DNA of 64,000 nt, taken from assembly GCA_041665305.1 (NCBI GenBank), contig JBAYJD010000004.1:27383-91382 (forward strand). The letters are read 5' to 3'. This document shows, in pieces, positions 22,320 through 53,166 of the stretch (within the stretch, counting starts at the first letter, position 1; each line of letters starts with the position of its first letter). The translations under genes were made by a program, and so were the position numbers. The notes under the pieces are model-generated. The model saw only the letters and a list, made by a program, of their open reading frames with translations. It did no database searches and was not told the origin of the DNA. This DNA comes from Elusimicrobiales bacterium. GTDB taxonomy: Bacteria; Elusimicrobiota; Elusimicrobia; Elusimicrobiales; UBA9959.

Positions 22320-22330
22320 TCTTAACCTTG

Positions 22331-22361
22331 CTCAATATTTCCGCAGGCAGCTTTTGAGCAT
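22331..22361. repeat. 31-bp direct repeat, copy 1 (duplicate of the colD-like 3' end)
   Basis: ctcaatatttccgcaggcagcttttgagcat is identical to 23894-23924. Confidence 0.95.
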
Positions 22362-22394
22362 TGCCCGGGCCGGAAACAGATTATTTCAAGCGGT

Positions 22395-23171: not shown

Positions 23172-23174
23172 GGT

Positions 23175-23795
23175 TTATAGATCCAGGAACCGGCCGACTC
23201 TGGACGACAAGGCTCGCACGCCGAAAGCGTCAAGATATTTATTAAGCCTGCTCGTATCGGCTTTAGCTTTAAACTCGGCGGAATTAAATCGTAAACTTTC
23301 AAAATCCACGGCATCTTTTATGCGCGGATTAAGATATAAAAAATCAAGCAGGGCCTTTTCAATTTCAGCCACCAGCACCCGGCGGCCATTTTTCTCTCTG
23401 AGTTCATATCCGAACATCAGCGAAGGCTTGAGCTGCTTATAGGTAAAAACGCCTATGTTTGTTTTAAACTGATTTGTTTTTTGCGAAGTCACCGAAGTTA
23501 TGGCATAAACGGCTTCCGGAATAAGCCCATACAGAGAAAGCGCCATCTCAAGAGAAATATATGACGGCTTATAGATAGTATTGGCGATCAGAAACAACTC
23601 ATGTTCATCTAAACCGGCATCAGAAAAAATATAGTAGCCTCTCCTGACCTTATTTATATAACCTTTTGCCATCCATTCGTTTATGCGCCTGAAATCAAAA
23701 TCTGGCGCAATTTTTCTAACATCGGCCAGACCAAAAACATCGAAGCCTTTTAATTTTTCTTTGAAATTTAAAAATTTCATATCATATAATTCCAT
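23175..23795 (-). CDS. abiEi: AbiEi-family antitoxin / transcriptional regulator
   Basis: 206-aa protein upstream of abiEii with an AbiEi-like N-terminal wHTH region (FDVFGLADVRKIAP...RINEWMAKGYINKVRRGYYIF). Confidence 0.7.
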   Translation of the reverse strand: MELYDMKFLNFKEKLKGFDVFGLADVRKIAPDFDFRRINEWMAKGYINKVRRGYYIFSDAGLDEHELFLIANTIYKPSYISLEMALSLYGLIPEAVYAITSVTSQKTNQFKTNIGVFTYKQLKPSLMFGYELREKNGRRVLVAEIEKALLDFLYLNPRIKDAVDFESLRFNSAEFKAKADTSRLNKYLDAFGVRALSSRVGRFLDL

Positions 23796-23831
23796 AACAT
23801 GTGTTTTTTAACATGTTATGGAATTATATCA
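23784..23831 (-). promoter_or_regulatory. abiEi promoter/operator: 19-bp perfect inverted repeat containing the extended -10 and the start codon
   Basis: The arms at 23784-23802 and 23811-23829 (atataattccataacatgt / acatgttatggaattatat) are separated by an 8-nt loop. On the minus strand the upstream arm carries TGATATAAT and the downstream arm carries the abiEi ATG. Confidence 0.5.
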
Positions 23832-23893
23832 TAATTAAGCCTACACTCAGAATTTTCCAGCTCAATATATTTCGGGCGTACCGTTATACCATA

Positions 23894-23924
23894 CTCAATA
23901 TTTCCGCAGGCAGCTTTTGAGCAT
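23894..23924. repeat. 31-bp direct repeat, copy 2 (functional 3' end of the colD-like gene)
   Basis: Encodes MLKSCLRKY plus the stop of the colD-like ORF. Identical to 22331-22361. A degenerate partial third copy (ctcaatatatttcgggcgta) lies at 23861-23880. Confidence 0.95.
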
Positions 23925-25070
23925 GTCCAGGTCGGCTTCGGTAAGCTCCGGGTAATTGCCGAAGTAAAAGCCGCATTCGTGCAGGAACTGGCCGCCTTTA
24001 AGCTGCCAGTCGCCTTTAACATACTTGGCGAAAAAGGGCTGATGCTGCATATTGCCCGCTATAACAGGACGGATTTCCACACCGTCACCGGAGAACTGCT
24101 CGATGTATTTGGCGCGCAGTTCCCTGGTCTTGCAAAGCACCGGAAAAGCGAAATTGGAAACGAAGGAAAGATGTCCGTGCTTTATCGGCAGCAAGTCCGG
24201 ATTATTATTGACCTCTTCTTCAAGCGCCAGATAATTTTTCTGACGGACCTGACAATTTTCATCCAGGTATTTAAGCTGGGTTAAACCCAAAAATCCTGTG
24301 ATCTCGGTAGGCCGCAGATTAAAGCCGAGGTCATAAAAAGTATATTTGGCCTCAAATTCGCTCTTTACGCCGTATTTTTCCCGCAGGCGGCGCTGGGCCG
24401 AGAAGTTAAGGTTGCGGTCCCAACCGTTGGCGCGGGTTATACGCAGCATTTCGTCCAGCTCGTCGTCATCAGCGCAGGCGCAGCCGCCTTCTATGGTGGA
24501 CATATGATGAGCCACAAAAAAAGAAAAAGTGGAGGCCAGGCCGAAATTACCGGTTTTCCCCCCTGGCAGGACCGTGCCGAGGGATTCGCAATTATCCTCT
24601 ATGAGCAGGACGCCGTTTTTTTTGCAAAGTTCGCGGATCTCACCCAGGTCACCGGCGAACCCCAGCGCGTTGGTGATAAAAAAAGCGTTCAATTTTACCT
24701 TTTTAAGGGTTTCGGAAAGGTTGGCGGCCATGCAGTTAAGCGTCTGAGCCTCGCAGTCCACCGGCACGGCTTTCATGCCAAGCTGAAGGATGGGCATAAC
24801 ATTGGTGGACCAGGTAAGGGCTGAAAAGCCCACGGTATCGCCGTCTTTAAGACGGCCCAGATTCTTAAGGGCCTGGAGCAGGGCCAGGTTGGCGCTGCCG
24901 CCGCTGTTAAAAAGGATGCAATGCCGCCGCCCCTGCGCCTTGGCGAAAGCCTTCTCGAACTCCCGGCATTTTTCGCCCATGCTAAGGATTTTGGCCTTAA
25001 GTATAAAATCCACCAGTTCTTTTTTGGTTTCATACTCGTTCAGGAATGTGTTCTTCATTAACGGGATCAT
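23895..25070 (-). CDS. colD: GDP-4-keto-6-deoxy-D-mannose 3-dehydratase-like PLP/PMP enzyme (ColD-like, DegT family)
   Basis: DegT-fold protein in which the Schiff-base Lys position is His (TFSFFVAHHMSTIEGG). LIEDNCESLG and RANGWDRNL blocks match my recollection of E. coli ColD. RBS GAAGGA. Confidence 0.7.
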   Translation of the reverse strand: MIPLMKNTFLNEYETKKELVDFILKAKILSMGEKCREFEKAFAKAQGRRHCILFNSGGSANLALLQALKNLGRLKDGDTVGFSALTWSTNVMPILQLGMKAVPVDCEAQTLNCMAANLSETLKKVKLNAFFITNALGFAGDLGEIRELCKKNGVLLIEDNCESLGTVLPGGKTGNFGLASTFSFFVAHHMSTIEGGCACADDDELDEMLRITRANGWDRNLNFSAQRRLREKYGVKSEFEAKYTFYDLGFNLRPTEITGFLGLTQLKYLDENCQVRQKNYLALEEEVNNNPDLLPIKHGHLSFVSNFAFPVLCKTRELRAKYIEQFSGDGVEIRPVIAGNMQHQPFFAKYVKGDWQLKGGQFLHECGFYFGNYPELTEADLDMLKSCLRKY

Positions 25071-25118
25071 AAGTATTTTCCTTCGGGAAAGCCGCTTGCT
25101 TTACGCAGAAATTGCTTT

Positions 25119-25158
25119 CTTCCAACCTTCCAAACCTCTAACCTTCTAACCCTCACCG
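25119..25158. repeat. Degenerate 8-nt tandem array (cttccaac family), intergenic
   Basis: Five units: cttccaac cttccaaa cctctaac cttctaac cctcaccg. The array overlaps the fcl/colC-like stop codon and lies about 50 nt upstream of the colD-like start. Confidence 0.9.
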
Positions 25159-26085
25159 TTTCCCCTGACCTTCCAGTCCTTTAAAAAACTCATAAGCCTT
25201 GGCTATTCCGTCCTTCAGCGATGTGGACGGCGCCCAGCCCCAGGCGGCCTGACGGGCGGTGTCTACCAGCTTTTGTTTCATGCCCGCCGGCTTGGACAGG
25301 TCGTGGGTGAACGCGCCTGTATAACCGACTACTTCGGCCACGGTCTGATAATAGTCGTTGACTGAATGATCGAGCCCCAGTCCGGCATTCATCAGGTCCG
25401 GCAGGGTGTCGAAATCGGTTATGGCTTTATGGATGCAGCCGGCGATATCACCGGCGTACATAAATTCCCTGCGGGTCAGGCCGTCTCCCCAGATCTCTAC
25501 CGACTTGCCCCCATTCAGCTTTGCCAGATGCAGTTTACGGATGACAGCCGGGATCATGTGGGAGTGCTCGGGGGAGAACTTATCCCAGCGGCCATAAAGG
25601 TTGCACGGAATAAGGGTTTTATAGCGGAACTCCGGGATTTCTTTTGAAATATAGGCGCACAGCCTGGAAACCACGACCTTTGCCAATGCGTAGCCTTCAT
25701 TGGTAGGCTCAAGTTCGCCCTGTAGAACCATTTCCTCTTTAAGAGGATTGGGGGCGTTGCGCGGATACATGCAGGAACTGCCCAGATTTATAAACTTTAT
25801 AACGCCGCAGTTGCGGGCGGCCCAAACGGTATTGCGGCCCATATCCATATTTTCAAGCAGGAAAGCCACAGGGTTGGCCATATTGGCCTGTATGCCGCCG
25901 ACGCGGCCCGCGGCGTGGATAATGATGTCCGGCTTAATTTTTGCCATGTAGGCCCTGACAGCTTCGTAATCAAAAAGATCAAGCTCCGGGAGATCCGGCG
26001 CAAAAAACTCATGTTTCGAAGCGGCGGGATGTTCAAGGATATTGCGCCCGACCATCCCCGAACCGCCCGTCAGCATAACTTTCAT
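25153..26085 (-). CDS. GDP-L-fucose synthase family (Fcl / GDP-L-colitose synthase ColC-like)
   Basis: VMLTGGSGMVGRNI, LGSSCMYP, EPTNEGYALAKV, SHMIPAVIRK. Start taken at ATG 26085 (MKVMLTGG), 4 nt after the upstream stop. Confidence 0.75.
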   Translation of the reverse strand: MKVMLTGGSGMVGRNILEHPAASKHEFFAPDLPELDLFDYEAVRAYMAKIKPDIIIHAAGRVGGIQANMANPVAFLLENMDMGRNTVWAARNCGVIKFINLGSSCMYPRNAPNPLKEEMVLQGELEPTNEGYALAKVVVSRLCAYISKEIPEFRYKTLIPCNLYGRWDKFSPEHSHMIPAVIRKLHLAKLNGGKSVEIWGDGLTRREFMYAGDIAGCIHKAITDFDTLPDLMNAGLGLDHSVNDYYQTVAEVVGYTGAFTHDLSKPAGMKQKLVDTARQAAWGWAPSTSLKDGIAKAYEFFKGLEGQGKR

Positions 26086-26089
26086 AAGA

Positions 26090-27199
26090 TCACCCTCTAA
26101 TACCGTGGTCACCGGCCTGGCGTCGATCGCGGTAACTTTGTTTAAACTCCGCCAGCGCGGAACAAACTTCTCCCTCTTCGAGGTCGTTAACTCTTAACAT
26201 TTCAAGATCATCATTAACCATGACCAAAGCCAGCTGCGCGCCGGTCCGTTTTTTGTCCCGCCCCATAGCGGAGATCATCTCGGCCTCTTCCAGACGAACC
26301 TGCCCAAAATCAAATTTTAAGATCGGCAGCAGAAGCTGCGCTATGAATTTTTCGGTTTTAACGGACAAGAGCCCCCGTTGCCGCGCAACGATGTCAGCCA
26401 GCAGGATGCCTGCCGCGACCGCGACCCCGTGAGGGACAAGAAAATCGCCGGCGGACTCTATCGCGTGCCCGAAACAATGGCCGAAGTTAAGCATGTTCCT
26501 GCGCCCTGAATCGAATTCATCGTCCTCTATATAATCCTTCTTGATCTCAAGAGCCGCCTTGAGAAACCGTTCCAGAGAACCGGGATCCCTCCCTGCCAGT
26601 TTGCCGGAGGTGTTGGAGAAATCTTCGGCACGCCGCTTCCCGCCTATTATGCACAATTTGGCGATCTCTCCCAAGCCGCTCAGATAATCTTCGTCTTTCA
26701 GGGTTGAAATAAACCTCGAAGAAATAAACACCTCGGAGGGCGGATAAAAAGTGCCTATAAGGTTCTTATAGCCTCTATAATTAAGGGAGGTCTTTCCCCC
26801 TATACAGCTGTCGGCCTGGGCCAGCAGCGTAGTGGGGACGAACGTCCATTTGATCCCCCTGTAAAGGGTAGAGGCGGCAAAACCCGTAATATCCTGCGTT
26901 ATTCCCCCGCCGATGGAAACAAGACGCATATTCTTTTTAGTGGCAAGTCCGGCTAGGCGATCATACAGCATCTGCACGGAGTTCAGCGTCTTAACCTCTT
27001 CGCTGACGGGGAGGATGATGTTCGGAAAGGCCTCCAAAAGCTTTAGCGCGGAATTTTTGTGCAAGCGCCAGACATTTTCATCGATCACGAACACACAACA
27101 GGGGTCTGCGGCCAGACGGGGTAGATATGCTTCCGTCTCCCCGAAAAAAACGCCGTAGTCCCTCAGCCTGGAGCCGACGATAAAATTATCTAAAGGCAA
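26090..27199 (-). CDS. 3-dehydroquinate synthase-like sugar phosphate cyclase family protein
   Basis: GGGITQDITGFAASTLYRGIKWTFVPTTLLAQADSCIGGKTSLN and NFGHCFGHAIES match DHQS-family nucleotide and metal motifs. TTG start overlapping the SDR stop. Confidence 0.7.
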   Translation of the reverse strand: MPLDNFIVGSRLRDYGVFFGETEAYLPRLAADPCCVFVIDENVWRLHKNSALKLLEAFPNIILPVSEEVKTLNSVQMLYDRLAGLATKKNMRLVSIGGGITQDITGFAASTLYRGIKWTFVPTTLLAQADSCIGGKTSLNYRGYKNLIGTFYPPSEVFISSRFISTLKDEDYLSGLGEIAKLCIIGGKRRAEDFSNTSGKLAGRDPGSLERFLKAALEIKKDYIEDDEFDSGRRNMLNFGHCFGHAIESAGDFLVPHGVAVAAGILLADIVARQRGLLSVKTEKFIAQLLLPILKFDFGQVRLEEAEMISAMGRDKKRTGAQLALVMVNDDLEMLRVNDLEEGEVCSALAEFKQSYRDRRQAGDHGIRG

Positions 27200-27858
27200 G
27201 TATAGCCCCCATCGGCGACAATTGTCTGCCCCGTAATATAGGTGTTTTGGGCTGAAGCCAAAAAGGATACGATCTCGGCTATTTCCGGAGGCTCAGCCAG
27301 GCGTTTTACGGGTATAGCCTGTGAAATAACCCGGATAGCGTCTTCGGAATTATTTCTGCGCGTGAGTTCCGTGTTCACAAATCCTGGCGCCACAGCGTTA
27401 ACCAGAACCCCGTACTGGGCGCATTCGACAGCGGCCGCCCTGGTCATGCCGTTGACAGCCGCCTTGGCGGTGGAATAAACGAACCTGCGCGGTTTTGCCA
27501 CGAGGCTCCAGACCGAACTGATATTTACGATCCTGCCGTATCCCCCGGAGCGCATTGAAGGGAGCACGCCGCGGATAAGCCGCATAGGAGCCGTAAGGTT
27601 CACCTGCATGATCGAGATCAAATCGTCATCCGAGTACTCCTCGGCGGAGCCGATAGGATTTATTCCGGCATTGTTTACCAGGATCTCGACAGGACCGGCG
27701 ATACCGCGGAGATATTCGTCTATGGATCCGTTTGAAGACAGATCAAGTTCGGCGCGCGGAGGCGTAAGCAAAACCGCCCCTTTTTGCCTGAAGGCTTCCG
27801 CGATGGCCCTGCCGATCCCCTTTGAAGCGCCTGTGATAAGGGCCGTACGGCCTTTCAT
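27190..27858 (-). CDS. Short-chain dehydrogenase/reductase (classical SDR, FabG-like)
   Basis: TGASKGIGRAIA, NNAG, YSTAKAAV. ATGA overlap with the upstream aldolase gene. Confidence 0.85.
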   Translation of the reverse strand: MKGRTALITGASKGIGRAIAEAFRQKGAVLLTPPRAELDLSSNGSIDEYLRGIAGPVEILVNNAGINPIGSAEEYSDDDLISIMQVNLTAPMRLIRGVLPSMRSGGYGRIVNISSVWSLVAKPRRFVYSTAKAAVNGMTRAAAVECAQYGVLVNAVAPGFVNTELTRRNNSEDAIRVISQAIPVKRLAEPPEIAEIVSFLASAQNTYITGQTIVADGGYTCL

Positions 27859-28670
27859 GTTATTTTCACTCCGGCCTCTTCAATAAGGCGTTTGTATCGT
27901 TTTTCAAGCATATTTATGCGTTGTTCGTCTTCAGCATATATCCCACCGTAAAAATTGCGTTTATTCATAAGCCACATCAACTCAAAACCCACGGCTTTAA
28001 GGATGCCGCTGGGGGCGTCGTCTTTTAAGGATTCAGGGCACTTAAATATAACCTTGCGGGTTTCATACCGGTCCAGCAGCCCGTTGGGAAGTCTTTTAAA
28101 GAAAGGCAGGGAATCTTTTGAGACTCCGCCGCCCACCACGCACTCAAGGCCTTTTTCTTTGGCTTTGGTGAAAAGCTCTTTGGTGATCTCAAATATCGCG
28201 TCGGAATTAATATCTTCCCGCGTCATTCCGAGAGAACCTGTCATATCAACACGCCCCAGCACAATACCGTCAAGTTCCGAGATCCCGTCTATTTTCAGCA
28301 TTTCATCAAAATTTTCGAAGCCCATCACCGTCTCTATATTCGCCAGCAAAGACACCTGCTGCATCTCATCTTTCGGAAATACCATTTTAGCGGCGCTCAG
28401 GTATTTCTTCAGCGCGTAAGGGGATTCTATCATGGGCGCCACTATTCTACAGGCCCCTATAGACCTGGCATCATACATGTCTTTCAGGGCTTCACAGCCG
28501 CCGACCTTGATAGTCAGTTCAAGACCGGCGCGGGTTACAACTTCCTTAAGGCGCAGCGCCTCCTCAAGACGGGTGCCTTCGGCCTCAAATTCGGCTTTGA
28601 TGCCGGCTACATTATGATTCGCCTTCAGGTCCTGAAGCACTTCTACCATCTGCCTTTCCAGATTATTCAT
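27855..28670 (-). CDS. HpcH/HpaI aldolase / citrate-lyase-beta-like TIM-barrel protein
   Basis: AEFEAEG, IVAPMIESP, ANIETV and GRVDM blocks are typical of the HpcH/PEP-utilising barrel family. Start taken at ATG 28670 (MNNLERQ), preceded by GGGAG. Confidence 0.6.
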   Translation of the reverse strand: MNNLERQMVEVLQDLKANHNVAGIKAEFEAEGTRLEEALRLKEVVTRAGLELTIKVGGCEALKDMYDARSIGACRIVAPMIESPYALKKYLSAAKMVFPKDEMQQVSLLANIETVMGFENFDEMLKIDGISELDGIVLGRVDMTGSLGMTREDINSDAIFEITKELFTKAKEKGLECVVGGGVSKDSLPFFKRLPNGLLDRYETRKVIFKCPESLKDDAPSGILKAVGFELMWLMNKRNFYGGIYAEDEQRINMLEKRYKRLIEEAGVKIT

Positions 28671-28754
28671 AATACTCCCGCCTTTGTGATCGATTCCGGC
28701 CTCCGGCCGCACTCACATCTTACAAAACATTAGAAATTCCTGCCGCAAAAATTT

Positions 28755-30545
28755 TTAATCAATAATGTTGCGCTGGAATTCTTCCCTGTCCAGAAAAGGC
28801 CACATATCCTCCAGCGGCTTGGAGACCATGCCGCCGTCGGGCTTCTTTTCCGATGATAGTTTGGGCATAAATTTATGATCCGCAGGCAATCTCACATCGC
28901 AAAGCGCCGGACCCTTTACCGCCAGGATCCGCGCAATTTTTTCGCTCATATCGGCGACGCAGTGGATGGTCTCGGTGTACAGGCCGAAAGCTCCGGCTAC
29001 TTTGACAAAATCAGGAAATCCGACCCCCGATCCGGGATCGCAGGCTACATAACGGCTTTCAAAAAAATTTTCCTGGGTTTGTCTGATGGAAACATAACCT
29101 TCGTTGTTCAGAACGAATATTTTCACCGGCAGCCTGTAATGCGCGATGGTGGCGAGTTCCTGTATATTCATCATAATGCTGCCGTCACCCGCCAGGCAAA
29201 CCACTTCTTTTTTACCGCCGCCGATGCAGGCCCCTACCGCCGCCGGAAGATCGTATCCCATAGAGGCGCAGCCGGAATTCCAGAATATCCGTTGTCCTTT
29301 TTTAACTATCCCTGCCTGGAACAGGCAGACGCAGGCGGAGCCGTTGCCCGCCGCCACAGGGGTATCCGGCGCAAGCATGGCCGTAAGAGTTTCCATAAAA
29401 TGGTATGGATTGACTTTGGTTTTAAGTTTTTTATACTCTTCAAGAACAACCGGGTACCTGACCGACCGCTCCCGGCACCAGGCCAGCCAGCCGGAGAAGT
29501 CCCCAAGCCCCTCAACCGGGATCTCCGATAGAAGACCGGCTATGAAATCCTTAACATCCGCAAGTACAGGCAAATCCGGTTTTACCGTGGGCTTGGCCAA
29601 TTCGGACGGGTCGATATCCACGATTATTTTTTTAGCTTTTTTCGCGTAATTGTCCCAGTCATAACTTATCTGGCGGACATTGTTGCGGGAACCCAGCGAA
29701 AGCACCAGATCGGCGTTCTGCAGTGAAAAGTTTCCGCCCCTGGTGCCTACGGTGCCTATCCTGCCGGCGTACCAGGGGCTGTCATTGGGCACGAGGTCAA
29801 AACCGGCGAAGGTCGCCAGCACGGGTATTTTTAAATTATCAGCCAGTTTTTCAAACAACTCTCTGGCGCCCGCTAACGCTATACCATGTCCGGCGATCAT
29901 CACCGGCCTTTTAGCCGATCTCAGCATTTCAACCGTTTTGCAAATCTGGGCCTTACAGCCGTCATCGGCCGGAACCGGTATTTCAGGTTCATAGGGAACA
30001 AGTGCATCCTCGTCTATCAACGCCGCCTGGACATCCAGCGGTATATCTATCCACACAGGTCCCGGACGCCCGGTCATGGCCGTATGAACCGCCTTATCAA
30101 GCACATACTTTACCTGATACGGATCCGTCAGCATCTGGGAAAACTTTGTAACCGGCTTGACTATCTCGGCGATATTAATTTCCTGGTCGCCAAGCTGGCG
30201 CAGCCCGGTTTCAGGACAGAAGGCGGTCGTGGTCTTGAACTTCACCTGGCCGGAAATGTACAACGCCGGGATCGAATCCAGCCACTGGCCTATAACGCCG
30301 GTTAAGGTATTGACGCCGCCCGGACCGGTGGTAACGATAGAAACTCCAAGTTTATCCGAGACGCGGGAATAGCCCTCCGCCCCTATAGCGGAAGCCTGCT
30401 CATGATGATTACAGATATATTCCAGCCCTTTGCACTTGCCCACGGAATCGTTGAGATGCATGGCCCCGCCGCCGGAGATCATAAACACATGCTTTACGCC
30501 GTGTTCCACAAGCCTTTTGGCCACATAATCGGATAGTTTTATCAT
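28755..30545 (-). CDS. Thiamine-diphosphate-dependent enzyme, acetolactate-synthase-like (YerE-like candidate)
   Basis: N-terminal Pyr domain (VKHVFMISGGGAMHL) and ThDP-binding motif CLAGDGSIMMNIQELAT...FVLNNEGY. Start taken at ATG 30545 (MIKLSDY). Confidence 0.8.
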   Translation of the reverse strand: MIKLSDYVAKRLVEHGVKHVFMISGGGAMHLNDSVGKCKGLEYICNHHEQASAIGAEGYSRVSDKLGVSIVTTGPGGVNTLTGVIGQWLDSIPALYISGQVKFKTTTAFCPETGLRQLGDQEINIAEIVKPVTKFSQMLTDPYQVKYVLDKAVHTAMTGRPGPVWIDIPLDVQAALIDEDALVPYEPEIPVPADDGCKAQICKTVEMLRSAKRPVMIAGHGIALAGARELFEKLADNLKIPVLATFAGFDLVPNDSPWYAGRIGTVGTRGGNFSLQNADLVLSLGSRNNVRQISYDWDNYAKKAKKIIVDIDPSELAKPTVKPDLPVLADVKDFIAGLLSEIPVEGLGDFSGWLAWCRERSVRYPVVLEEYKKLKTKVNPYHFMETLTAMLAPDTPVAAGNGSACVCLFQAGIVKKGQRIFWNSGCASMGYDLPAAVGACIGGGKKEVVCLAGDGSIMMNIQELATIAHYRLPVKIFVLNNEGYVSIRQTQENFFESRYVACDPGSGVGFPDFVKVAGAFGLYTETIHCVADMSEKIARILAVKGPALCDVRLPADHKFMPKLSSEKKPDGGMVSKPLEDMWPFLDREEFQRNIID

Positions 30546-30552
30546 GTATGGT

Positions 30553-31434
30553 CTATTTGTCCACAAGCAACGCTTCCCTGTTTATGGACTTCTTATTAGC
30601 GTGATACCATGAATAAAGTTTTTTGATAGCCGCGTCAAGCGGAGTGAAAGATATAGTTTTTACCTCTGTTTTCAATCTGGAATTATCGCCGCTGTATTCG
30701 GCGCCCAGCCCCGGCCGGGCGACTTTAACAGGCAAATCTTTGCCGGCAACTGAAAGGACCCGTTCGGCCAGCTCTATAAGCTCCACGGATGTATCCGGGG
30801 TGACATTATAAGCCTGGTGCTCCGCCATGTTCTCCAAAAGGTATTCTATAACAGGATAGAGGTCGTCGATCCACAGATAATCGAACCTGCGGTTCTGTTT
30901 TATCGTAAGCGGCAGGTCGAAAATAGCCTTGCAGATCATGTTGGAAATAAAGCGGATGGAATAATCCTCGTATTTGCCGTAAATACCGAAAACGCGCAAG
31001 TCGGTTATCTTGCCGGTTTTCTCCATGTATTTGCCGCATACATATTTGCAGAACCCGTGCTCATCGGCGGGGACATGCGTATCAAAATAATTTTCTTTCA
31101 TTTTCGGCCGGTAATAGCGCATATCGTATATGGCGCCGGAACCTATCACCAGCATTTTTTTAAAATATTCCGCGTTGCGGGCTAGATTAAAGAACATCCG
31201 GGTGTTCTCATACAGGACTTTCCCCGGCTCCTCGGAGTTGCGGTGTCCCGGCTTCGCGGCGGCGTGTATAACAAAATCAAAACCCCCGTTTTTCAAACAG
31301 TTTTTTACCGCGTCATCGTTTAAAAGATCCAGATCGGCATGCCCTGGAGCGGCTATGCGGTATTTCCGGGCAAGCGGAGATTCAAGGAGATTTCTCCCGA
31401 TAAACCCGCTTCCTCCTGTAAGAAGGACCTTCAA
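30553..31434 (-). CDS. NAD(P)-dependent sugar epimerase/reductase (YerF-like candidate)
   Basis: VLLTGGSGFIGRNLL Rossmann motif. TTG start overlapping the upstream small-ORF stop (TTGA). Confidence 0.65.
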   Translation of the reverse strand: MKVLLTGGSGFIGRNLLESPLARKYRIAAPGHADLDLLNDDAVKNCLKNGGFDFVIHAAAKPGHRNSEEPGKVLYENTRMFFNLARNAEYFKKMLVIGSGAIYDMRYYRPKMKENYFDTHVPADEHGFCKYVCGKYMEKTGKITDLRVFGIYGKYEDYSIRFISNMICKAIFDLPLTIKQNRRFDYLWIDDLYPVIEYLLENMAEHQAYNVTPDTSVELIELAERVLSVAGKDLPVKVARPGLGAEYSGDNSRLKTEVKTISFTPLDAAIKKLYSWYHANKKSINREALLVDK

Positions 31435-31676
31435 GCGCGCCCCCGGAAACCGGCTATGGCGGGGTGTTTGTCACGGCAATCCTGGCATATCAGCACGGTC
31501 AGAAACGCCAGAGCGATGGTTTTTAAATACGCGCCTTCGGCGTCAATTTTAGAAACAGCGGTCTTCACATACCGCCACACGAACCAGGTGAATACCAAGA
31601 GCATGGCGACAAGCACAAAGTCATGGTGGACATCTTCTTTTACGATAAAATCCACGACATAGTCGGATAATTTCAT
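31431..31676 (-). CDS. Small hypothetical protein (two hydrophobic segments); possible gene remnant
   Basis: 81-aa ORF with no recognisable RBS. Its N-terminus (MKLSDYVVDFIVKEDVHHDF) mimics the N-terminus of ThDP enzymes, including the neighbour's (MIKLSDYVAKRLVEHGVKHVF). Confidence 0.3.
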   Translation of the reverse strand: MKLSDYVVDFIVKEDVHHDFVLVAMLLVFTWFVWRYVKTAVSKIDAEGAYLKTIALAFLTVLICQDCRDKHPAIAGFRGRA

Positions 31677-31686
31677 TGGTCGGGGG

Positions 31687-33126
31687 CTATTTATTCAACG
31701 GCGTAAAACCGCTGAAGGATTTAACCATATATTCGAGCATTTGCTTTGTCATGCCGGGGTAGACGCCTATCCAGAAGGTGGAGGACATGATGGTATCGGT
31801 AACGGGCAAAGCGGAAGGGCGGCCGGAAGCGGAAACCACACGGAAGCCGCTGCCGGAGCGGCGCATTTCGTCGAAACAGGGGTGCTTTATAAGATTGCCG
31901 GCGAACAGCATGCGGGTCTGGATCTTGTTCTTCTCAAGGTGCGCGACAAGCTGATCGCGGGTAAAACCGGCGTTCTCTTTGACAGTCAGCATAAAACCGA
32001 ACCAGCTGGGATCTGAATCCTGCGCCGGTTCCGGAAGGATAAGCCTGTCTGAAAAAACATCGAGGGCTTTGCGCAGATATTGCCAGTTCTTTTTGCGGGC
32101 ATCTATGAATCCCGGGAGTTTTTCCAGCTGCGCCAGGCCTATGGCCGCCTGCATCTCGGTGGCTTTGAGGTTATAGCCGAAATGGGAATAGACATACTTA
32201 TGATCGTAACCTGACGGAAGTTCGCCGAACTGCTGCGTGAATCTTTTGCCGCAGGTATTATCCTTGCCGGAAGGACACCAGCAATCGCGGCCCCAGTCGC
32301 GGAAAGAATCCACCAGCCGCTTTAACTGGGGATTATTGGTGTATACAGCCCCACCCTCGCCCATAGTCATATGATGCGGCGGGTAGAAGCTGGAAGTGCC
32401 GATGTCGCCGAATGTCCCGGTGTATTGGGAACTACGAGGGTTGGATGACCTGCCGGATAAAGGAATGCCTTCTTCTAACCCTCCAACCTTCCAACCTTCC
32501 AACCTTCTGTATTTACTCCCCAATGCGTCGCAGTTGTCTTCTATCAACCAAAGGTTGTGTTTTTCGCAGAAAGATTTTACGGCTTTAAGGTCGAAGGGGT
32601 TGCCGAGGGTGTGGGCGGCCATTACGGCTTTTGTTTTTTTGGAAACGGCTTTTGCGAGCAGGGAACAATCCATGTTATATGAGGGCAGACTGACATCCAC
32701 GAACACGGGGACCGCGCCGTACTGGATGATGGGGGTTACGGTCGTGGGGAACCCGGCGGCGACGGTTATAACCTCGTCTCCGGGGTTTATCCGCCTGGCG
32801 CCCAGTTTGGGAGAGGTGAGGGCCATGAAGGCCAGCAAATTGGCCGAGGAGCCGGAATTAACCAGGGAAACATGCCTGACCCCGAGGAATTCGCCTAATT
32901 TTTTTTCGAAAGCGTCAACATAGCGGCCGGAGGTAAGCCAGAAATCCAGGGCGGAATCGACGAGGTTCGCCACCTCTTTTTCGTCAAAAACCCTGCCGCC
33001 GTAAGCGACATGGGATTTGCCGGGCTCAAAATCTTTCTTTTTATGGAAAAGGCGGTGGTATTGCGAAACTTTGCCGAGTATTTCTTTGCGCAGCTGTTTG
33101 TCCGTTACGACCGTCTTAAGATTCAT
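31687..33126 (-). CDS. rfbH: CDP-6-deoxy-D-xylo-4-hexulose 3-dehydrase (E1), with an in-frame repeat insertion
   Basis: FYPPHHMTMGEGG (His in place of the PLP Lys), RDWGRDCWCPSGKDNTCGKRF (Fe-S Cys cluster), GYNLKATEMQAA. It carries about 29 extra residues (RRLEGWKVGGLEEGIPLSGRSSNPRSSQY). Confidence 0.85.
   Translation of the reverse strand: MNLKTVVTDKQLRKEILGKVSQYHRLFHKKKDFEPGKSHVAYGGRVFDEKEVANLVDSALDFWLTSGRYVDAFEKKLGEFLGVRHVSLVNSGSSANLLAFMALTSPKLGARRINPGDEVITVAAGFPTTVTPIIQYGAVPVFVDVSLPSYNMDCSLLAKAVSKKTKAVMAAHTLGNPFDLKAVKSFCEKHNLWLIEDNCDALGSKYRRLEGWKVGGLEEGIPLSGRSSNPRSSQYTGTFGDIGTSSFYPPHHMTMGEGGAVYTNNPQLKRLVDSFRDWGRDCWCPSGKDNTCGKRFTQQFGELPSGYDHKYVYSHFGYNLKATEMQAAIGLAQLEKLPGFIDARKKNWQYLRKALDVFSDRLILPEPAQDSDPSWFGFMLTVKENAGFTRDQLVAHLEKNKIQTRMLFAGNLIKHPCFDEMRRSGSGFRVVSASGRPSALPVTDTIMSSTFWIGVYPGMTKQMLEYMVKSFSGFTPLNK
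32472..32511. repeat. 8-nt tandem array inside rfbH
   Basis: cttctaac cctccaac cttccaac cttccaac cttctgta. An inverted single unit, gagggttgga (32436-32445), is complementary at 9 of 10 positions to 32474-32483. Confidence 0.9.
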
Positions 33127-33159
33127 GTTCAGTCCCTCAAATCGCTTATTATATAGTTA

Positions 33160-33168
33160 ATTATAGCA
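33160..33168 (-). promoter_or_regulatory. Candidate extended -10 promoter (TGCTATAAT) upstream of rfbH
   Basis: The minus strand reads TGCTATAAT about 34 nt upstream of the rfbH ATG. It lies in the 104-nt AT-rich spacer after the MBL gene. Confidence 0.35.
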
Positions 33169-33230
33169 ATTTGGGCTACAGAATGAGAGCCGCTAAGGAG
33201 TTGCGAGTTTCGAATGCCGCGAAATTATTT

Positions 33231-33980
33231 TTAAAGCTTGATGCGGAGCCCGTCTACGGCGGCCTGGGTGTTTTTAAATATTTTCCGGGCTATTTTCTGG
33301 GCGTTAGCGCGGTCGTTCATGGCGGGGTATCTGTCGGCGCCGAAATGGGCGAGAGCCAGTTTTTTAGCCCCGGCCTTTTTTGCAAGCGCCGCCGCGCTTG
33401 CGGGGTCCATATGGGGCCAGCCGGGATTGGTTTCCCCCGGTCTGTGGGCGCATTCGCTTATCAGAAGGTCGGCGTTTTGCGCCAGTTTCACGGAGTTGGC
33501 GCAGGGGCCTGTGTCGGTGCAATAAGCGACCGCCTTGCCGTCTATCTCGAATCTGTAGCCGAGTACCGGGTCCGCGTGGACCAAAGGCAGGCATTTCAGG
33601 GTAAAAGGAAGCCTTGCGGCGTCCGAGGGCAGTTCCAGGACTTCGGTCTTATATTTCAGGTTTTTCAGCGGCACGGTGAACGGACGGCGCAGGATCAGGG
33701 CCAGCGTTTTCCTGGCGCCTTTGCCCGCGCAGATAGTGAGGCCTTTTTTGAACCTGGAATTAAATTTCACCAGTATATGCAGACCGGCGATATGGTCCAG
33801 ATGAAAATGGCTTAAGAACAAGTAAATGGGTTTGGAGCCGTCCACATATTTGCCCAGCTTATAAAGGCCGTTGCCGGCATCCAGGACAATATCATATTTT
33901 TCGGTTTTAACCAGCACGCAGATAGCGTTGCCCGTTTTTGTATCATACCAGCCGTTGGTTCCGAGGAAGATTATTTCCAT
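33231..33980 (-). CDS. MBL-fold metallo-hydrolase (RNase Z/BN-like)
   Basis: LSHFHLDHIAGL metal motif, CTDTG and SECAH blocks. Start taken at ATG 33980 (MEIIFLGTNGW). Confidence 0.75.
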   Translation of the reverse strand: MEIIFLGTNGWYDTKTGNAICVLVKTEKYDIVLDAGNGLYKLGKYVDGSKPIYLFLSHFHLDHIAGLHILVKFNSRFKKGLTICAGKGARKTLALILRRPFTVPLKNLKYKTEVLELPSDAARLPFTLKCLPLVHADPVLGYRFEIDGKAVAYCTDTGPCANSVKLAQNADLLISECAHRPGETNPGWPHMDPASAAALAKKAGAKKLALAHFGADRYPAMNDRANAQKIARKIFKNTQAAVDGLRIKL

Positions 33981-34012
33981 AATAAAAGCACCTTGTTTAC
34001 TATACGCAGATC

Positions 34013-35320
34013 TTAATGGCTTCTGATCGGAAATTCGAGCGCCCATTTATAGAAGGGGAGCGCCCGCACTGTTACACCGTCCAGGCGCTCCTCATACTCT
34101 TCCGACCAAGTTACTATCTTACCCGCCGCAAGATTAAGAGATTTACAGGCTTTAATCAAGCCGCTGAACTCCCTTTTCTTTGTTGAAGGAGAAGTGAGAT
34201 CACAAGCCGCCTGAAACACCTCCGGAGGGCCCTGCTCGTTAAGCCGCACAAAATCACACTCGCTGCCGCCTTTTATATAGTAGATCTCACTTCCGGCGGT
34301 GTGAAGCTCCGTAAAAACGGCGTTTTCAAGCAGCTTGCCGCGATCTTCGGAAAACCCGAAAGACACGGAGGTCGCCAGCCCGTTATCGACCACATATATC
34401 TTTTTCTCGGAACCTTCCCGTTTTATAAGCGATTCATTATATTTTTTCAACGGGAAAAAGAAATATATCGCGCGCAGCTCTTCCAGTAATTCGTATAAAA
34501 GATTTTTATCGGCTTTATAGCCCTGTGAATGGAGCTCATTATAGATCTTGTGCACGGACACCGGGGTCGAAATGCAGGCTAAAAGACGCTTTATAAAATA
34601 CTTCAGCAGATGCGCATGCGGCTTGCGTTCATACCGCTCGATAAGGTCCTTAAACAACATCACATTAAAATATTCCTGCAATGTTTTCACTCTCAGCCCC
34701 TCCTCCATTGAAAGGACTTCGGGAAAACCGCCGGCACGCAGATATTCTTCGGATTTAGCCGCCACCCTGTTCCTTGAAGCGGCGGGATACATCTCCGCCG
34801 CCGTTCCGGAGAAAGACAGATATTCCCGGAACGATAAGGGGTAGACTTCATAAGTCAGATTACGCCCGCGTAAACTTGTGGAGATGTCGGTGCTTAGTAA
34901 TTTAGAATTGGAGCCCGTCAAAAAAACATTTTTAGAAACGGAGTCATACACCCGGCGGACAAATTTTTCCCACCCCTCGACATTCTGGATCTCGTCAAAA
35001 AAGAAATAAGATTTCGAGAGATCCGCATCCGGATAAAGCTCACCATAAGCCTGCAGGATCAGGTCCAGGTCGTCTCTCCCGGCCTCTAAACGCTCATCTT
35101 CAAAATTCACATATATAATGCCGCGTATATCCGCGCCGCGCGCTAAAAGCCGTGAAACAGCATCCAGAAGAAGGAAGGTTTTTCCGCTGCGGCGTACGCC
35201 GGATACAGCAACGACCTTACCTGAATCCAAAGGCACGCTGATAAACCGTTTTTTAACGGGAGGAACCGGTCGTGTCTGGAAAGAGCGAATTATCTCTTTA
35301 AACACTTCTTTCTTGACCAT
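34013..35320 (-). CDS. AAA-family ATPase with DUF4143-type C-terminal domain
   Basis: Walker A GVRRSGKTFLL and Walker B FFFDEIQ. The C-terminal block (GSECDFV) is typical of the COG1373-type ATPase family. Confidence 0.75.
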   Translation of the reverse strand: MVKKEVFKEIIRSFQTRPVPPVKKRFISVPLDSGKVVAVSGVRRSGKTFLLLDAVSRLLARGADIRGIIYVNFEDERLEAGRDDLDLILQAYGELYPDADLSKSYFFFDEIQNVEGWEKFVRRVYDSVSKNVFLTGSNSKLLSTDISTSLRGRNLTYEVYPLSFREYLSFSGTAAEMYPAASRNRVAAKSEEYLRAGGFPEVLSMEEGLRVKTLQEYFNVMLFKDLIERYERKPHAHLLKYFIKRLLACISTPVSVHKIYNELHSQGYKADKNLLYELLEELRAIYFFFPLKKYNESLIKREGSEKKIYVVDNGLATSVSFGFSEDRGKLLENAVFTELHTAGSEIYYIKGGSECDFVRLNEQGPPEVFQAACDLTSPSTKKREFSGLIKACKSLNLAAGKIVTWSEEYEERLDGVTVRALPFYKWALEFPIRSH

Positions 35321-35326
35321 AAAGAT

Positions 35327-35355
35327 ATTATATCACAAAATTTCTTTATATTCAA
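35327..35355 (-). promoter_or_regulatory. Near-consensus promoter of the ATPase/MBL pair (leaderless start predicted)
   Basis: The minus strand reads TTGAAT, 17 nt, TATAAT with an extended TGA. Only 6 nt (ATCTTT) separate the -10 from the ATPase ATG, and there is no SD. Confidence 0.55.
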
Positions 35356-35388
35356 GAAATTTAACGCAATAGGAGAGGCATTGTACAG

Positions 35389-36537
35389 TCAACTTAATAT
35401 ATGACAATATTCTTCGATTTGCTTAATACACACTTCCCGCATGTCTTGACGGCGCTCGCAGGCTATCGTCCATTCTATGATCTTATCGATAGCCCGGCCT
35501 ATATGCCACCGTGGGGCCCAATGGAGTTCTTTTCTGGCCTTGGAAGAATCCAGTTTTAAGTAATGAGCTTCGTGGGGATGGGGACCTTTGTCTATGGCGT
35601 AGCCTGGGGCTTCGGGCCATTTGCGGAACATCCGCCTGACTATCCATTCCACATTTTTAGCGTCTCCGGCGTCGGGTCCGAAATTCCAGGCCTGGGCGTA
35701 GCGGGGGCCGTGCTTATATAGTTTTTCGGCCAGCATAAGATAGCCGTTCAACGGTTCAAGGACATGCTGCCAGGGACGGATGGCGCGCGGATTGCGGATA
35801 TGAACTTTCTCTCCCTTTAAAGCCGCCCGGATAATGTCCGGGATAAGCCGGTCCGCCGCCCAGTCCCCGCCTCCGATAACATTGCCGGCGCGGGCGGAGG
35901 CGAGCGCTATATGGTGGAGCGAAGGTTGGAGGGTTGGAGGGTTGGAGGGTTGGAGGGAGGCGGAGTAATTTTTGGGATTAAAGAAGGAACTGCGGTAGGC
36001 GGAGGTGACAAGCTCGGAACAGGCTTTGCTGGACGAATAAGGGTCGTAACCGCCCAAGGGTTCGTCTTCTTTATAGCCGCGCAGGTGTTCTTTATTCTCG
36101 TAGCATTTGTCGGTGGTGACATTGACTATGGCACGGACGGAACTGCATTTGCGGGCGGCCTCAAGCAGGTTTATAGTGCCCATGACATTGGTTTCGTAAG
36201 TTTCGCGCGGATCTTTATAAGACAGTCTCACAAGGGGCTGGGCGGCCATGTGAATGATTATGTCCGGCTTTGCCGCTAATACGGCTTTTTGCAGGCGGAC
36301 TGCGTCGCGCACATCGCCTATGGTCGTTTTTGTGATCTTTTTAAGCGCGCACAATTCATAAAGACTGGGGTTCGTATTGGGCTTTAAAGCGTAGCCGTAA
36401 ACCTTCGCACCGAGCGCGTGCAGCCAGATGGAAAGCCACGAGCCTTTAAAGCCGGTGTTGCCTGTTAAGAATACTTTTTGGCCATGCCAAAAAGTATGAG
36501 GGTTGGAGGGTTGGAGGGCTGGAGGGTTGGAGGACAT
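35389..36537 (-). CDS. rfbG: CDP-glucose 4,6-dehydratase, with two in-frame repeat insertions
   Basis: FWHGQKVFLTGNTGFKGSWLSIWL, YSSSKACSE, ARAGNVIGGGDW, RPWQHVLEPL. AGGAGA RBS inside the manC 3' end. Confidence 0.85.
   Translation of the reverse strand: MSSNPPALQPSNPHTFWHGQKVFLTGNTGFKGSWLSIWLHALGAKVYGYALKPNTNPSLYELCALKKITKTTIGDVRDAVRLQKAVLAAKPDIIIHMAAQPLVRLSYKDPRETYETNVMGTINLLEAARKCSSVRAIVNVTTDKCYENKEHLRGYKEDEPLGGYDPYSSSKACSELVTSAYRSSFFNPKNYSASLQPSNPPTLQPSLHHIALASARAGNVIGGGDWAADRLIPDIIRAALKGEKVHIRNPRAIRPWQHVLEPLNGYLMLAEKLYKHGPRYAQAWNFGPDAGDAKNVEWIVRRMFRKWPEAPGYAIDKGPHPHEAHYLKLDSSKARKELHWAPRWHIGRAIDKIIEWTIACERRQDMREVCIKQIEEYCHILS
35924..35955. repeat. Four perfect 8-nt units (ggttggag) inside rfbG
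   Basis: ggttggag x4 on the plus strand. Translated on the minus strand as ...SLQPSNPPTLQPSL... between the conserved FFNPKNY and ARAGNVIGGGDW blocks. Confidence 0.95.
36501..36532. repeat. Four 8-nt units (one variant) occupying the first codons of rfbG after the start
   Basis: ggttggag ggttggag ggctggag ggttggag on the plus strand. The minus strand reads ATG TCC TCC AAC CCT CCA GCC CTC CAA CCC TCC AAC CCT. Confidence 0.95.
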
Positions 36538-36543
36538 TTTTAT

Positions 36544-37974
36544 TTATCTCCTGTTGTAAATGTCGTTAAAGCGGAGAATGTCGTCTTCTCCGACATATTC
36601 CCCGTTCTGGACTTCTATCAGTTCCAGCGGGACTTTGCCGGGATTTTCCAGACGGTGGCCCATGGATTTGGGGACATAGGTGCTCTCATTCTCGTGCACA
36701 ATAGAGGTTTTTTCGCCGATGGTGACTTTTGCCGCGCCTTTGACCACTATCCAATGCTCGCTGCGGTGGTAATGCAGCTGATGGCTGAGTTTCTGGCCGG
36801 GCTTCACGACTATGCGTTTTATCTTGTAGCGGGAGCCCTCTTCCAGTACGGTGTAGGCGCCCCACGGGCGGTAGGTGGTGGTGTGCTCCACGACCTCTTT
36901 TCGCTTGCGCTCTTTAAGCAGCTCCACGACTTCTTTAACCCGCTGCGCCTGGCCGCGATGCGCCACCAGCAGGGCGTCGGCGGTGTCTATTATGATCAGG
37001 TCCTTTACGCCTATTGTCGAAATAAGGCGGTTTTCCCCCAGCACTATGGTCTTTGCCGTATCCAGCGCTATCACATCGCCCACTTTTACATTGCCGTCCG
37101 CATCCGGTTTTATAACTTCCGGCAGGGAATCCCAGGACCCGACATCCGACCAGAGCAGATCTATGGGCAGGACGGCGGCTTTTTTGGATTTTTCCATGAC
37201 CGCGTAGTCTATGGAGATGGCCGGCATATTTTTAAAATCCGCGGTCATGCGGGCCAGGGTCAGCCCCATTCTGCGGCTTATCGCCGGGGAATGGGCTTTA
37301 AACTGCGACAGCATCGTCCCGATAGTAAAAGCGAACATCCCCGAATTCCAGTAATAATTACCGTCCTTGACATATTTTTCCGCCGTCTCCTGATCGGGCT
37401 TTTCGGCGAACCTGGCGACATGGTAAAGTTCTCCGTATGCGGAGCTCTTCAGCACACCGGCCCTATCCGTTCTCCCCCCCGCCGCGGCCCCCGTTTTTAT
37501 ATACCCGTAGCCGGTCTCAGGACGGACCGGTTTTATGCCGAAGGTGACAATGCTCCCGGCTTTGGCGGCGGTTTCGGCCTGCCTTGCGTAACGGGCGAAT
37601 TTTTCGACCGGCTGGATTATGTGGTCGGAGGGACAGATGAAGATCACTTCGTCCTTTGCGCATTTAAGCTTTTCAGCGCAATATTTCATCACCAGCGCGA
37701 TGGCTGGGGCGGTATTGCGGCCCACCGGCTCAAGGATAATATTATGTTCGATGTCCGGGGACACGGCCTTCAGGTCTTCCTGCACATGAAAGCGGTAATC
37801 CTCGTTGGTGATCACAAAAATATCTTTCAGCGGCAGCACGGCCGCCAGCCTCTCCACCGTGCTGCAAAGCAGAGATTTACCGCCGTTCAATTTTATGAAC
37901 TGCTTGGGCAGGCCGTAACGGGAAACCGGCCACAGGCGCGTACCGGAACCACCGGCAAGGATTATCGCTTTCAT
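36544..37974 (-). CDS. manC: Mannose-1-phosphate guanylyltransferase / mannose-6-phosphate isomerase (bifunctional)
   Basis: [18 protein letters not shown]-terminal NTP-transferase domain and a C-terminal cupin (HRSEHWIVVKGAAKVTIGE). Confidence 0.9.
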   Translation of the reverse strand: MKAIILAGGSGTRLWPVSRYGLPKQFIKLNGGKSLLCSTVERLAAVLPLKDIFVITNEDYRFHVQEDLKAVSPDIEHNIILEPVGRNTAPAIALVMKYCAEKLKCAKDEVIFICPSDHIIQPVEKFARYARQAETAAKAGSIVTFGIKPVRPETGYGYIKTGAAAGGRTDRAGVLKSSAYGELYHVARFAEKPDQETAEKYVKDGNYYWNSGMFAFTIGTMLSQFKAHSPAISRRMGLTLARMTADFKNMPAISIDYAVMEKSKKAAVLPIDLLWSDVGSWDSLPEVIKPDADGNVKVGDVIALDTAKTIVLGENRLISTIGVKDLIIIDTADALLVAHRGQAQRVKEVVELLKERKRKEVVEHTTTYRPWGAYTVLEEGSRYKIKRIVVKPGQKLSHQLHYHRSEHWIVVKGAAKVTIGEKTSIVHENESTYVPKSMGHRLENPGKVPLELIEVQNGEYVGEDDILRFNDIYNRR

Positions 37975-43423: not shown

Positions 43424-43451
43424 AGCCTTTAGCCTTTAGCCTTCAGCCTAA
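43424..43451. repeat. 7-nt tandem array (agccttt family) across the GT2 stop codon
   Basis: agccttt agccttt agccttc agcctaa. The minus strand reads (AAGGCTR)x4 across the last codons and stop of the GT2 gene, running into the spacer upstream of rfbA. Confidence 0.9.
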
Positions 43452-53091: not shown

Positions 53092-53166
53092 TGGTGCCCA
53101 GTATAGGGATCGAACCTATGACCTTTCCCATGTCAAGGGAACGCGCTACCGCTGCGCCAACTGGGC
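53092..53166 (-). tRNA. tRNA-Val (anticodon GAC), CCA encoded
   Basis: Manual cloverleaf fold: 7-bp acceptor stem GCCCAGT/ACTGGGC, D arm GCGC-AGCGGTA-GCGC, anticodon arm TTCCC-TTGACAT-GGGAA, variable loop AGGTC, T arm ATAGG-TTCGATC-CCTAT, discriminator A, CCA. Confidence 0.9.

Follow-up and report, generated by a model that had tools for sequence, protein, structure and literature searches.

The 23S rRNA intervening sequences (IVSs) of bacteria such as Leptospira and Coxiella are the closest described counterparts of the element considered here, a family of 8-nt tandem-repeat tracts lying in and around the nucleotide-sugar genes rfbG and rfbH of an Elusimicrobiales bacterium (assembly GCA_041665305.1, contig JBAYJD010000004.1, forward-strand positions 27,383 to 91,382; this 64 kb stretch is called the window, and positions below are counted from its first letter). 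The Coxiella IVS, a selfish element of 428 nt, has a terminal stem of 28 bp, which is cut by ribonuclease III (RNase III), and it carries an open reading frame (ORF) for a protein named S23p (PMC4990558). S23p belongs to the family PF05635, the "23S rRNA intervening-sequence protein", which is an Avd-like four-helix bundle, and a gene of this family is found directly 5' of rfbG in three relatives of the window locus. The dimensions of the Coxiella IVS match those of the PF05635 cassettes of relatives.

As with the IVSs, these cassettes are about 430-480 nt long, have no transposase, contain a four-helix-bundle ORF of about 120 codons and also exist as short forms that lack the ORF, whilst their arms of 26-36 nt compare with an IVS stem of about 28 bp. 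Both are found at insertion-tolerant positions and have a sporadic, horizontal distribution (PMC4990558). Unlike the IVSs, the elements described here sit between or inside protein-coding genes and none is placed in rRNA helices 9, 25 or 45. Moreover, their arms are visibly composed of 7-8-nt tandem units, the arms within ORFs are translated, and the window would hold ORF-less relics only.

Three other systems share some of these features. The Rickettsia palindromic elements (RPEs) and intragenic miniature inverted-repeat transposable elements are palindromic mini-insertions that enter unrelated metabolic genes in frame and encode a peptide that the host protein's fold can accommodate (PMC10969869). 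In the present locus there are likewise in-frame inserts at tolerant sites of unrelated enzymes, and the palindromic form is seen in homologues. RPEs, however, are about 150 bp long, encode a conserved peptide, have no tandem units and are confined to Rickettsia, whereas the arm described here is a 32-nt octamer array whose two orientations yield different peptides and which is tied to a PF05635 cassette. The cyanobacterial STRRs (short tandemly repeated repetitive sequences) are also a dispersed family of short tandem arrays, found inside a functional gene as well; a 1997 article by Vioque (cited in PMC2858038) reportedly concerns, going by its title alone, heterocyst-forming cyanobacteria in which STRRs lie in the gene for RNase P RNA. 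STRRs have been characterised as 7-nt repeats of heterocystous cyanobacteria and are not known to be attached to any element. In Anabaena and Nostoc plasmids such heptamer arrays flank four-helix-bundle genes. The tracts of the window differ from STRRs in their 8-nt unit, their Elusimicrobiales host and their translation, although heptamers are present in relatives and at other places in the window. Finally, the contingency loci of Haemophilus, Neisseria and Campylobacter have non-triplet units in surface-glycan genes, either within them or shortly after their start, as here, but their tracts are long and vary among strains and reads, whereas the tracts described below have four units, a stable length and a fixed modular build.

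The explanation that the evidence modestly favours is that the window tracts are ORF-less relic arms of an IVS-type PF05635 cassette, tolerated in the host enzymes as disordered loops. We infer this descent because the tracts occupy positions orthologous to those of cassette arms and resemble these arms in sequence.

The four repeat tracts

All genes around the four tracts are on the - strand. An earlier note on this DNA, made from the letters alone, had reported four arrays, A to D, with A and B inverted relative to C and D, and both their places and their orientations are borne out by direct reading and by Tandem Repeats Finder (Table 1). The unit of all four tracts is GGTTGGAG (consensus GGTTGGAR) and is present in both orientations: on the + strand A and B are C-rich and C and D are G-rich, and on the coding strand A and B read GGTTGGAR and C and D read CTCCAACC. 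When up to three mismatches were allowed, a pattern of two units gave 13 matches in the window against 0.69 expected, a count reached by none of 100 shuffles, and all 13 fall inside the tracts; no extra tract was found in the window even at four mismatches. The tracts are confined to the nucleotide-sugar segment, and the concentration in one part of the locus that the note had described is real, as no tract is present in the remaining 52 kb of the window, where at least 12 glycosyltransferase genes of this polysaccharide locus lie.

The four tracts have a common build, consisting of GAR, exactly four octamers and a short tail, and each is 40-41 nt long. The tail GRARGC is common to A, B and C, whilst that of D, GACAT, contains the start codon of rfbG. 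Pairwise identity is 80-94% over 34-41 nt, with A and B identical at 33 of 41 positions. Because of this shared build, length and identity, the tracts look like copies of one module of about 40 nt, forming a single repeat family, rather than free-running microsatellites. The previous description of array A as intergenic and degenerate needs qualifying on this account: A begins 2 nt into the stop codon of the epimerase gene, 44 nt 5' of the ATG of the next gene (25070), and it has the same four-unit build as B to D. In the units GGTTGGAG, GGTTGGAA and GGCTGGAG all six frames are free of stop codons, and an insertion is therefore read through whenever its length is a multiple of three.

Table 1. 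Repeat arms, host genes and associated insertions in the window, with Tandem Repeats Finder (TRF) results for the period-8 arrays
Feature	Position	Strand	Description
Arm A	25114..25154	-	- strand: GAG GGTTAGAA GGTTAGAG GTTTGGAA GGTTGGAA GAAAGC; solo G-rich arm; TRF 25119-25151, 4.1 copies, 80% matches
NAD-dependent sugar epimerase/reductase ORF	25153..26112	-	stop codon overlapped by arm A
rfbH (CDP-6-deoxy-4-hexulose 3-dehydrase, E1)	31687..33126	-	479 aa; hosts arm B
Whole RfbH insertion	32425..32505	-	residues 208-234; missing from 3bcx and several close homologues
Decayed opposite arm of rfbH hairpin	32436..32447	-	coding strand CATCCAACCCTC; translated within SSNPRSS
Arm B	32467..32507	-	- strand: GAA GGTTGGAA GGTTGGAA GGTTGGAG GGTTAGAA GAAGGC; in rfbH, translated RRLEGWKVGGLEEG; TRF 32472-32507, 4.5 copies, 89% matches
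rfbG (CDP-glucose 4,6-dehydratase)	35389..36537	-	382 aa; hosts arms C and D
Arm C	35921..35961	+	+ strand: GAA (GGTTGGAG)x4 GGAGGC; antisense to rfbG; TRF 35924-35957, 4.2 copies, 100% matches
Arm D	36498..36537	+	+ strand: GAG GGTTGGAG GGTTGGAG GGCTGGAG GGTTGGAG GACAT; ends in rfbG start codon; TRF 36498-36533, 4.5 copies, 92% matches

This uniformity bears on the idea that the tracts are independent local microsatellites, or P/S/N/Q-rich or charged loops kept by selection on the protein. Low-complexity loops are common in proteins, and in one relative (L204) a heptamer array in manC, with the unit GCCTATG, clearly grew out of conserved AYG codons (GCCTATGGC). Yet four tracts within 11.5 kb that agree in their unit and in their length of four units, have similar ends and occur in both orientations cannot be independent, and the peptides encoded by the two orientations are unrelated, poorly conserved and predicted to be disordered. 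Such an origin for the window tracts is thus considered highly improbable.

A repeat search identifies B and C as 41-nt inverted copies, 36 of 41 positions being identical (88% complementary), which lie 3413 nt apart. They could in principle serve as a recombination substrate, where inversion of the 3.4-kb segment between them would disrupt rfbG and rfbH together, although the longest perfect stretch shared by the two, about 13 nt, is a short one for homologous recombination to act on. The annotated parts of the locus showed no recombinase gene, all three available assemblies show one orientation and the gene order is the same in relatives, and a recombinational role is hardly credible.

Two further ideas were dropped. 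A G-quadruplex does not fit, as there are four GGG runs in C and in D but a single one in A and in B, and a Chi-like or uptake signal does not fit an octamer that never occurs as a dispersed single copy in the 64 kb. A literature search on the sequence, or on octanucleotide and heptanucleotide repeats, found nothing relevant.

In-frame insertions in RfbG and RfbH

The peptides encoded by the tracts are RLEGWKVGGLEEG in the RfbH ORF and LQPSNPPTLQPS in the RfbG ORF, in agreement with those that the note had quoted. Its view that they are in-frame insertions is also upheld by alignment with solved structures. Compared with 1wvg and 1rkx, RfbG has a 14-residue insert, ASLQPSNPPTLQPS, that coincides with arm C, and an N-terminal extension of about 10 residues. 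Array D forms codons 2-13 of rfbG, straight after an ATG that is preceded by AGGAGA, and codons 1-13 read MSSNPPALQPSNP. In RfbH the inserted segment faces only two residues of 3bcx, giving about 25 extra residues, a longer stretch than the array itself accounts for. The remainder includes a 12-nt remnant that pairs with arm B in the predicted fold, albeit weakly (z = -1.76), and at the equivalent place in relatives a full second arm is kept. The insertions are found in two unrelated folds, namely the short-chain dehydrogenase/reductase fold of RfbG and the aminotransferase fold of RfbH.

In AlphaFold models the region around the RfbH insert (residues 201-233) is coil with a predicted local distance difference test (pLDDT) score below 50, as is the score of the RfbG N-terminus, and RfbG residues 183-210 are also modelled as coil. 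The inserted peptides look like disordered loops and are probably near neutral.

Directly after tract D, at 36473-36495, there is a 10-bp stem with a 3-nt loop (ACTTTTTGGCcatGCCAAAAAGT), which encodes the conserved TFWHGQK. A 106-nt region around this stem folds with z = -3.3, and a similar palindrome is kept in the relative L203.

The same sites in relatives

The closest RfbG homologues (72-81% identical) all have both the N-terminal extension and an internal insert at the same site, with decayed LQPSNPPT-like peptides. Both rfbG sites hold octamer arrays in L203 (RfbG 80% identical), where CCCTCCAA x4.6 follows the start codon and CCTTCCAA x3.2 is internal, and in L204 (79%), where the arrays are of the CCAATCCT type; L121 has a perfect heptamer array, CCCTCAT x4.6, at the internal site. 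The start-codon tract takes up 13 codons before TFW in the window, in L203 and in L121, the two relatives being 80% and 72% identical, and it differs by point substitutions only. At the internal site, lengths among relatives differ by 3-6 nt and not by whole units. Among the 80 more distant rfbG loci listed (50-72% identical, L123-L202), which were collected by a metagenome scan with conserved RfbG peptide patterns and serve as a negative control only, the repeat was found in none.

For RfbH, about 45 of the best 120 homologues (65-83% identical) have an insert at one position, between GS-x-Y-R and QYTGTFG. A typical insert reads RLEDWKVGRLE ... SNPPTLQPSNP, which corresponds to a forward array followed by an inverted array and would give a hairpin. 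A second site near the C-terminus often reads SNPPTLQPS. The presence of the insert is patchy on a neighbour-joining tree, and close homologues without it (for example P0125 compared with P0123) resemble deletions of the insert.

Several relatives have arrays at more than one of these sites. L209 contains arrays at three rfbG sites, including a two-armed hairpin at the C site, at two rfbH sites and at one intergenic site, and L211 has them at the internal rfbG site and both rfbH sites. Going by its contig prefix, JANNRW01, L210 is assigned to a metagenome-assembled genome of the Geobacteraceae, in a different phylum from the Elusimicrobiales host of the window; it carries arrays both at the N-terminal and at the internal site of rfbG, at the two rfbH sites and at one place between genes. 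Elsewhere in the L210 genome a 10.9-unit array lies between an aminopeptidase-like and a dUTPase-like ORF, as judged by eye from the translations. Inverted arm pairs are kept in L210, L126, L208, L209 and L211, whilst in the window arms A, C and D are solo and only B has its 12-nt partner remnant.

Outside rfb loci, a scan of a genome collection for GGYTRGAR x3, a pattern that proved too permissive, returned at least 120 loci from more than 20 phyla, with no Elusimicrobia among the matches listed. Searching the 120 listed loci with RfbG and RfbH by tblastn showed that these cross-phylum arrays are not in rfb genes. About 32% of them have an inverted partner within 250 nt, and for about 27% an ORF of 120 aa or more, in some cases perhaps a spurious one, spans the array. 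A protein query with the peptide repeats yielded 36 hypothetical ORFs, all of them tiny, but not known positives such as P0149, and it is uninformative on enrichment.

Other insertions and fusions are found in the same genes. A PemK-toxin-like domain (PF02452) of about 100 residues is fused N-terminally in the RfbH homologues P0177, P0180, P0198, P0203, P0235 and P0239, and also at L210:8001-9815. As an explanation of the RfbH insertion this domain was ruled out, since the fusion is N-terminal and away from the insertion site. In ManC, the loop between GYGYIK and AYGE carries heptamer arrays of different units in L121 (7782-7812) and L204 (5651-5732), and the GCCTATG unit of the latter also flanks a PF05635 gene 2.5 kb away; the equivalent loop of the window belongs to manC at 36544-37974.

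Slippage and RNA pairing as alternative explanations

The length comparisons above bear directly on the hypermutable switch that the note had put forward, in which slipped-strand mispairing of the 8-nt units would shift the frame of rfbG or rfbH and toggle the CDP-dideoxyhexose branch of a surface glycan. Several features are what such a switch would have: the unit length is indivisible by three, the tracts lie in surface-glycan genes, one of them straight after a start codon, and array C consists of four perfect units. Any single-unit change in a tract within an ORF would give a null allele. Moreover, the 7-mer array of L121 at the C site and the arrays of 8-16 units in L208 and L210 point to unit turnover or expansion over evolutionary time. 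Hypermutable contingency tracts usually have many units, however, and each tract here has only four. The constant length of tract D and the 3-6 nt differences at site C are not those expected of gain and loss of octamers, and three assemblies of the same organism (JGI, ENA and Logan), which may share reads, are identical through tracts B, C and D. All recovered homologues are in frame, an observation biased by ORF calling, and the glycosyltransferases of the locus, which would be the usual phase-variable targets, carry no tract. The common 40-nt build likewise favours copied modules over slippage-tuned tracts. The switch is consequently regarded as unlikely.

A role at the RNA level would make use of the opposite orientations of the arms. 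The C-rich D and C would be upstream and the G-rich B and A downstream in a polycistronic mRNA, where they could pair and act as RNase III sites or as translation brakes that set pathway stoichiometry. Predicted duplexes are strong (-60.9 kcal/mol for B-C, -51.8 for B-D and -44.8 for A-D), the rfbH hairpin of L208, with arms of 8.9 and 8.1 units, folds at -68 kcal/mol, and the element is kept at the same rfbG and rfbH sites in distant lineages. The stems of rRNA intervening sequences are, moreover, RNase III substrates (PMC4990558). Against this, the arms of L209 are internally uniform but have diverged from each other, with about 5 of 8 positions pairing and -23.9 kcal/mol over 120 nt; because they have drifted apart whilst remaining internally homogeneous, pairing is not the conserved feature. 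The local folds of the window are no better than those of shuffled sequences (z = -1.76 for B and z = +1.1 for A), and a local hairpin function there was dropped because the folds are not significant. Many close homologues have no inserts, and an Rfam scan of the window matched a single tRNA and gave no family for the tracts. A functional RNA is therefore an improbable explanation.

PF05635 cassettes with inverted tandem arms

The relatives in which the arms still enclose a PF05635 gene connect the tracts with IVS-type elements. In L210 a PF05635 gene at 6217-6585 is located between rfbF and rfbG, and its arms, at 6168-6201 and 6613-6646, are inverted octamer arrays that are identical at 32 of 34 positions. 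The right arm lies within rfbG codons 11-22, and the ATG of rfbG overlaps the PF05635 stop codon. L126 is arranged in the same manner, with the PF05635 gene directly 5' of rfbG and the right arm in the first rfbG codons, although its arms are more degenerate than those of L210. On the P0004 contig the PF05635 gene stops 2 nt before an rfbG that begins MPSNLPILQSSNP. The position of the right arm of these cassettes at the start of rfbG is that of tract D in the window. In L203 and L204 the PF05635 genes are found downstream of rfbG and are flanked by four-unit inverted heptamer arrays.

The association of this family with inverted tandem arms is not restricted to these genes. Nine of the ten PF05635 genes in the loci examined, of which three loci were chosen by their array pattern and the rest were not, are flanked by inverted repeats scoring 27-81, compared with a mean of 16 and a 95th percentile of 21 for 360 random control segments. 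The flanking arms are tandem 7-9-mers, typically 26-36 nt long. In an independent set of cultured isolates, drawn from a plasmid collection, inverted tandem arms flank three of six four-helix-bundle genes (Anabaena AGGTGAC, Nostoc GGGAAAA and Picosynechococcus AGGAGATA), two have direct tandem arrays on both sides and one has none.

PF05635 genes enclosed by arms are seen in several phyla, at L069:1858-2350, L210:6168-6646, L126:2146-2591, L203:1760-2252 and L204:7800-8241, and in L212, L216 and L217. On cyanobacterial plasmids they are found between cas genes (cas6/cas4 and cas10/cmr3), with arms that resemble STRR heptamers.

A proposed origin of the tracts

The full cassette would comprise two inverted arms of about 26-36 nt, made of 7-8-nt tandem units, around a PF05635 gene of about 120 codons, and a short form would comprise arm, loop and arm only. 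Such elements may have entered the rfbF-G-H cassette in an ancestor and then travelled with it across lineages. One element directly 5' of rfbG would have contributed its right arm as the first codons of rfbG, giving array D, whilst ORF-less hairpins would have entered a single loop in each enzyme, giving array C in RfbG and array B, with its decayed partner, in RfbH. Array A would be a solo arm behind a stop codon. Insertions with a length that is a multiple of three would be read through and would survive where they land in a surface loop. The PF05635 gene would have gone from this genome, and one arm of each hairpin would have been lost or have decayed. Single arms within ORFs may be favoured because a coding stem of about 30 bp would, by analogy with the rRNA intervening sequences, be cut by RNase III. 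Because every frame of the unit is open and the sites tolerate insertion, the arms would persist in the form of translated loops. The alternative offered in the note, a previously undescribed mini-repeat that colonises coding DNA whilst preserving the frame, is thus closer to the evidence than the switch, but the repeat is not wholly undescribed in that it is tied to the arms of known IVS/PF05635 cassettes.

Several observations weigh against a derivation from relic cassette arms. The 64 kb window contains no PF05635 gene. In L203 and L204, the closest relatives for which DNA is available, the PF05635 genes are downstream of rfbG and have heptamer rather than octamer arms. Only 3 of the 120 listed GGYTRGAR loci adjoin a PF05635 gene, and the cross-phylum arrays could be convergent. 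Arrays are also homogeneous internally, as seen in the four perfect units of C, the perfect 7-mers of L121 and the 100%-identical arms of L209; this homogeneity shows that slippage or conversion has acted on the arrays, which an inert relic would not need. Finally, the persistence of the unit in rfbG and rfbH genes that are about 55-70% identical hints at some maintaining force.

A broader proposal can be put forward more tentatively and is judged rather less likely than not. It holds that IVS/S23p (PF05635) hairpin cassettes are pan-bacterial mobile elements with arms of 7-8-nt units, that these arms are the source of STRR-like repeat families, and that, thanks to units without stop codons in any frame, the arms colonise ORFs and persist as translated loops, here at four fixed RfbG/RfbH sites in at least two phyla.

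The surrounding locus

The first 46 kb of the window (1-46 kb) form one very large polysaccharide locus, with at least 12 glycosyltransferases, an ATP-binding cassette (ABC) exporter, radical S-adenosylmethionine enzymes and nucleotide-sugar genes. Downstream of rfbF (39136-39906), rfbG and rfbH is a gene for a thiamine pyrophosphate-dependent, acetolactate-synthase-like enzyme (28755-30566), an arrangement which we take to resemble the YerE route to a branched CDP-3,6-dideoxyhexose of the yersiniose type. No E3 reductase gene was seen near these genes in the window.

The polysaccharide locus also contains small genes of other kinds. An AbiEii toxin-domain gene and a 206-aa partner ORF with no Pfam match (22395-23795) are bracketed by 44-nt direct repeats (22325-22368 and 23888-23931, 89% identical), one of which overlaps the 3' end of an aminotransferase gene, an arrangement that looks like the trace of an inserted cassette. 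An inverted repeat of 23 nt (96% complementary, spacer of 8 nt) lies at 23780-23833, in the interval from the aminotransferase gene to the 206-aa ORF. A gene for an AAA_14/DUF4143 ATPase occupies differing intergenic slots of rfb clusters (window 34013-35320; L121:8798-9976 and 17183-18580; L210:3526-4611), and NTase/HEPN-type, PIN/HicB and PF05635 genes likewise occupy differing spacers among relatives. The spacers of the rfb operon are a landing strip for small selfish genes.

Two heptamer arrays are found elsewhere in the window. AGCCTTT x3.7 (43424-43449) lies at the 3' end of a glycosyltransferase gene, just 5' of the first dTDP-rhamnose-type gene (NTP_transferase), and CTCTACC x4.3 (53052-81) adjoins the tRNA gene (53095-53166).

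Implications

If the tracts are relic arms of IVS-type cassettes, a single element would explain together the rRNA intervening sequences and the stray genes annotated as "four helix bundle" or "S23 ribosomal protein", would account for the origin of dispersed 7-8-nt tandem-repeat families and would explain in-frame non-triplet repeats in conserved enzymes. For annotation, it would follow that when a glycan gene contains a non-triplet repeat, this alone is no signal of phase variation. The insertions would also mark the loops of RfbG and RfbH that tolerate 14-60 extra residues and, with arms at known protein sites in many lineages, would provide an accessible system in which to follow how such cassettes move.

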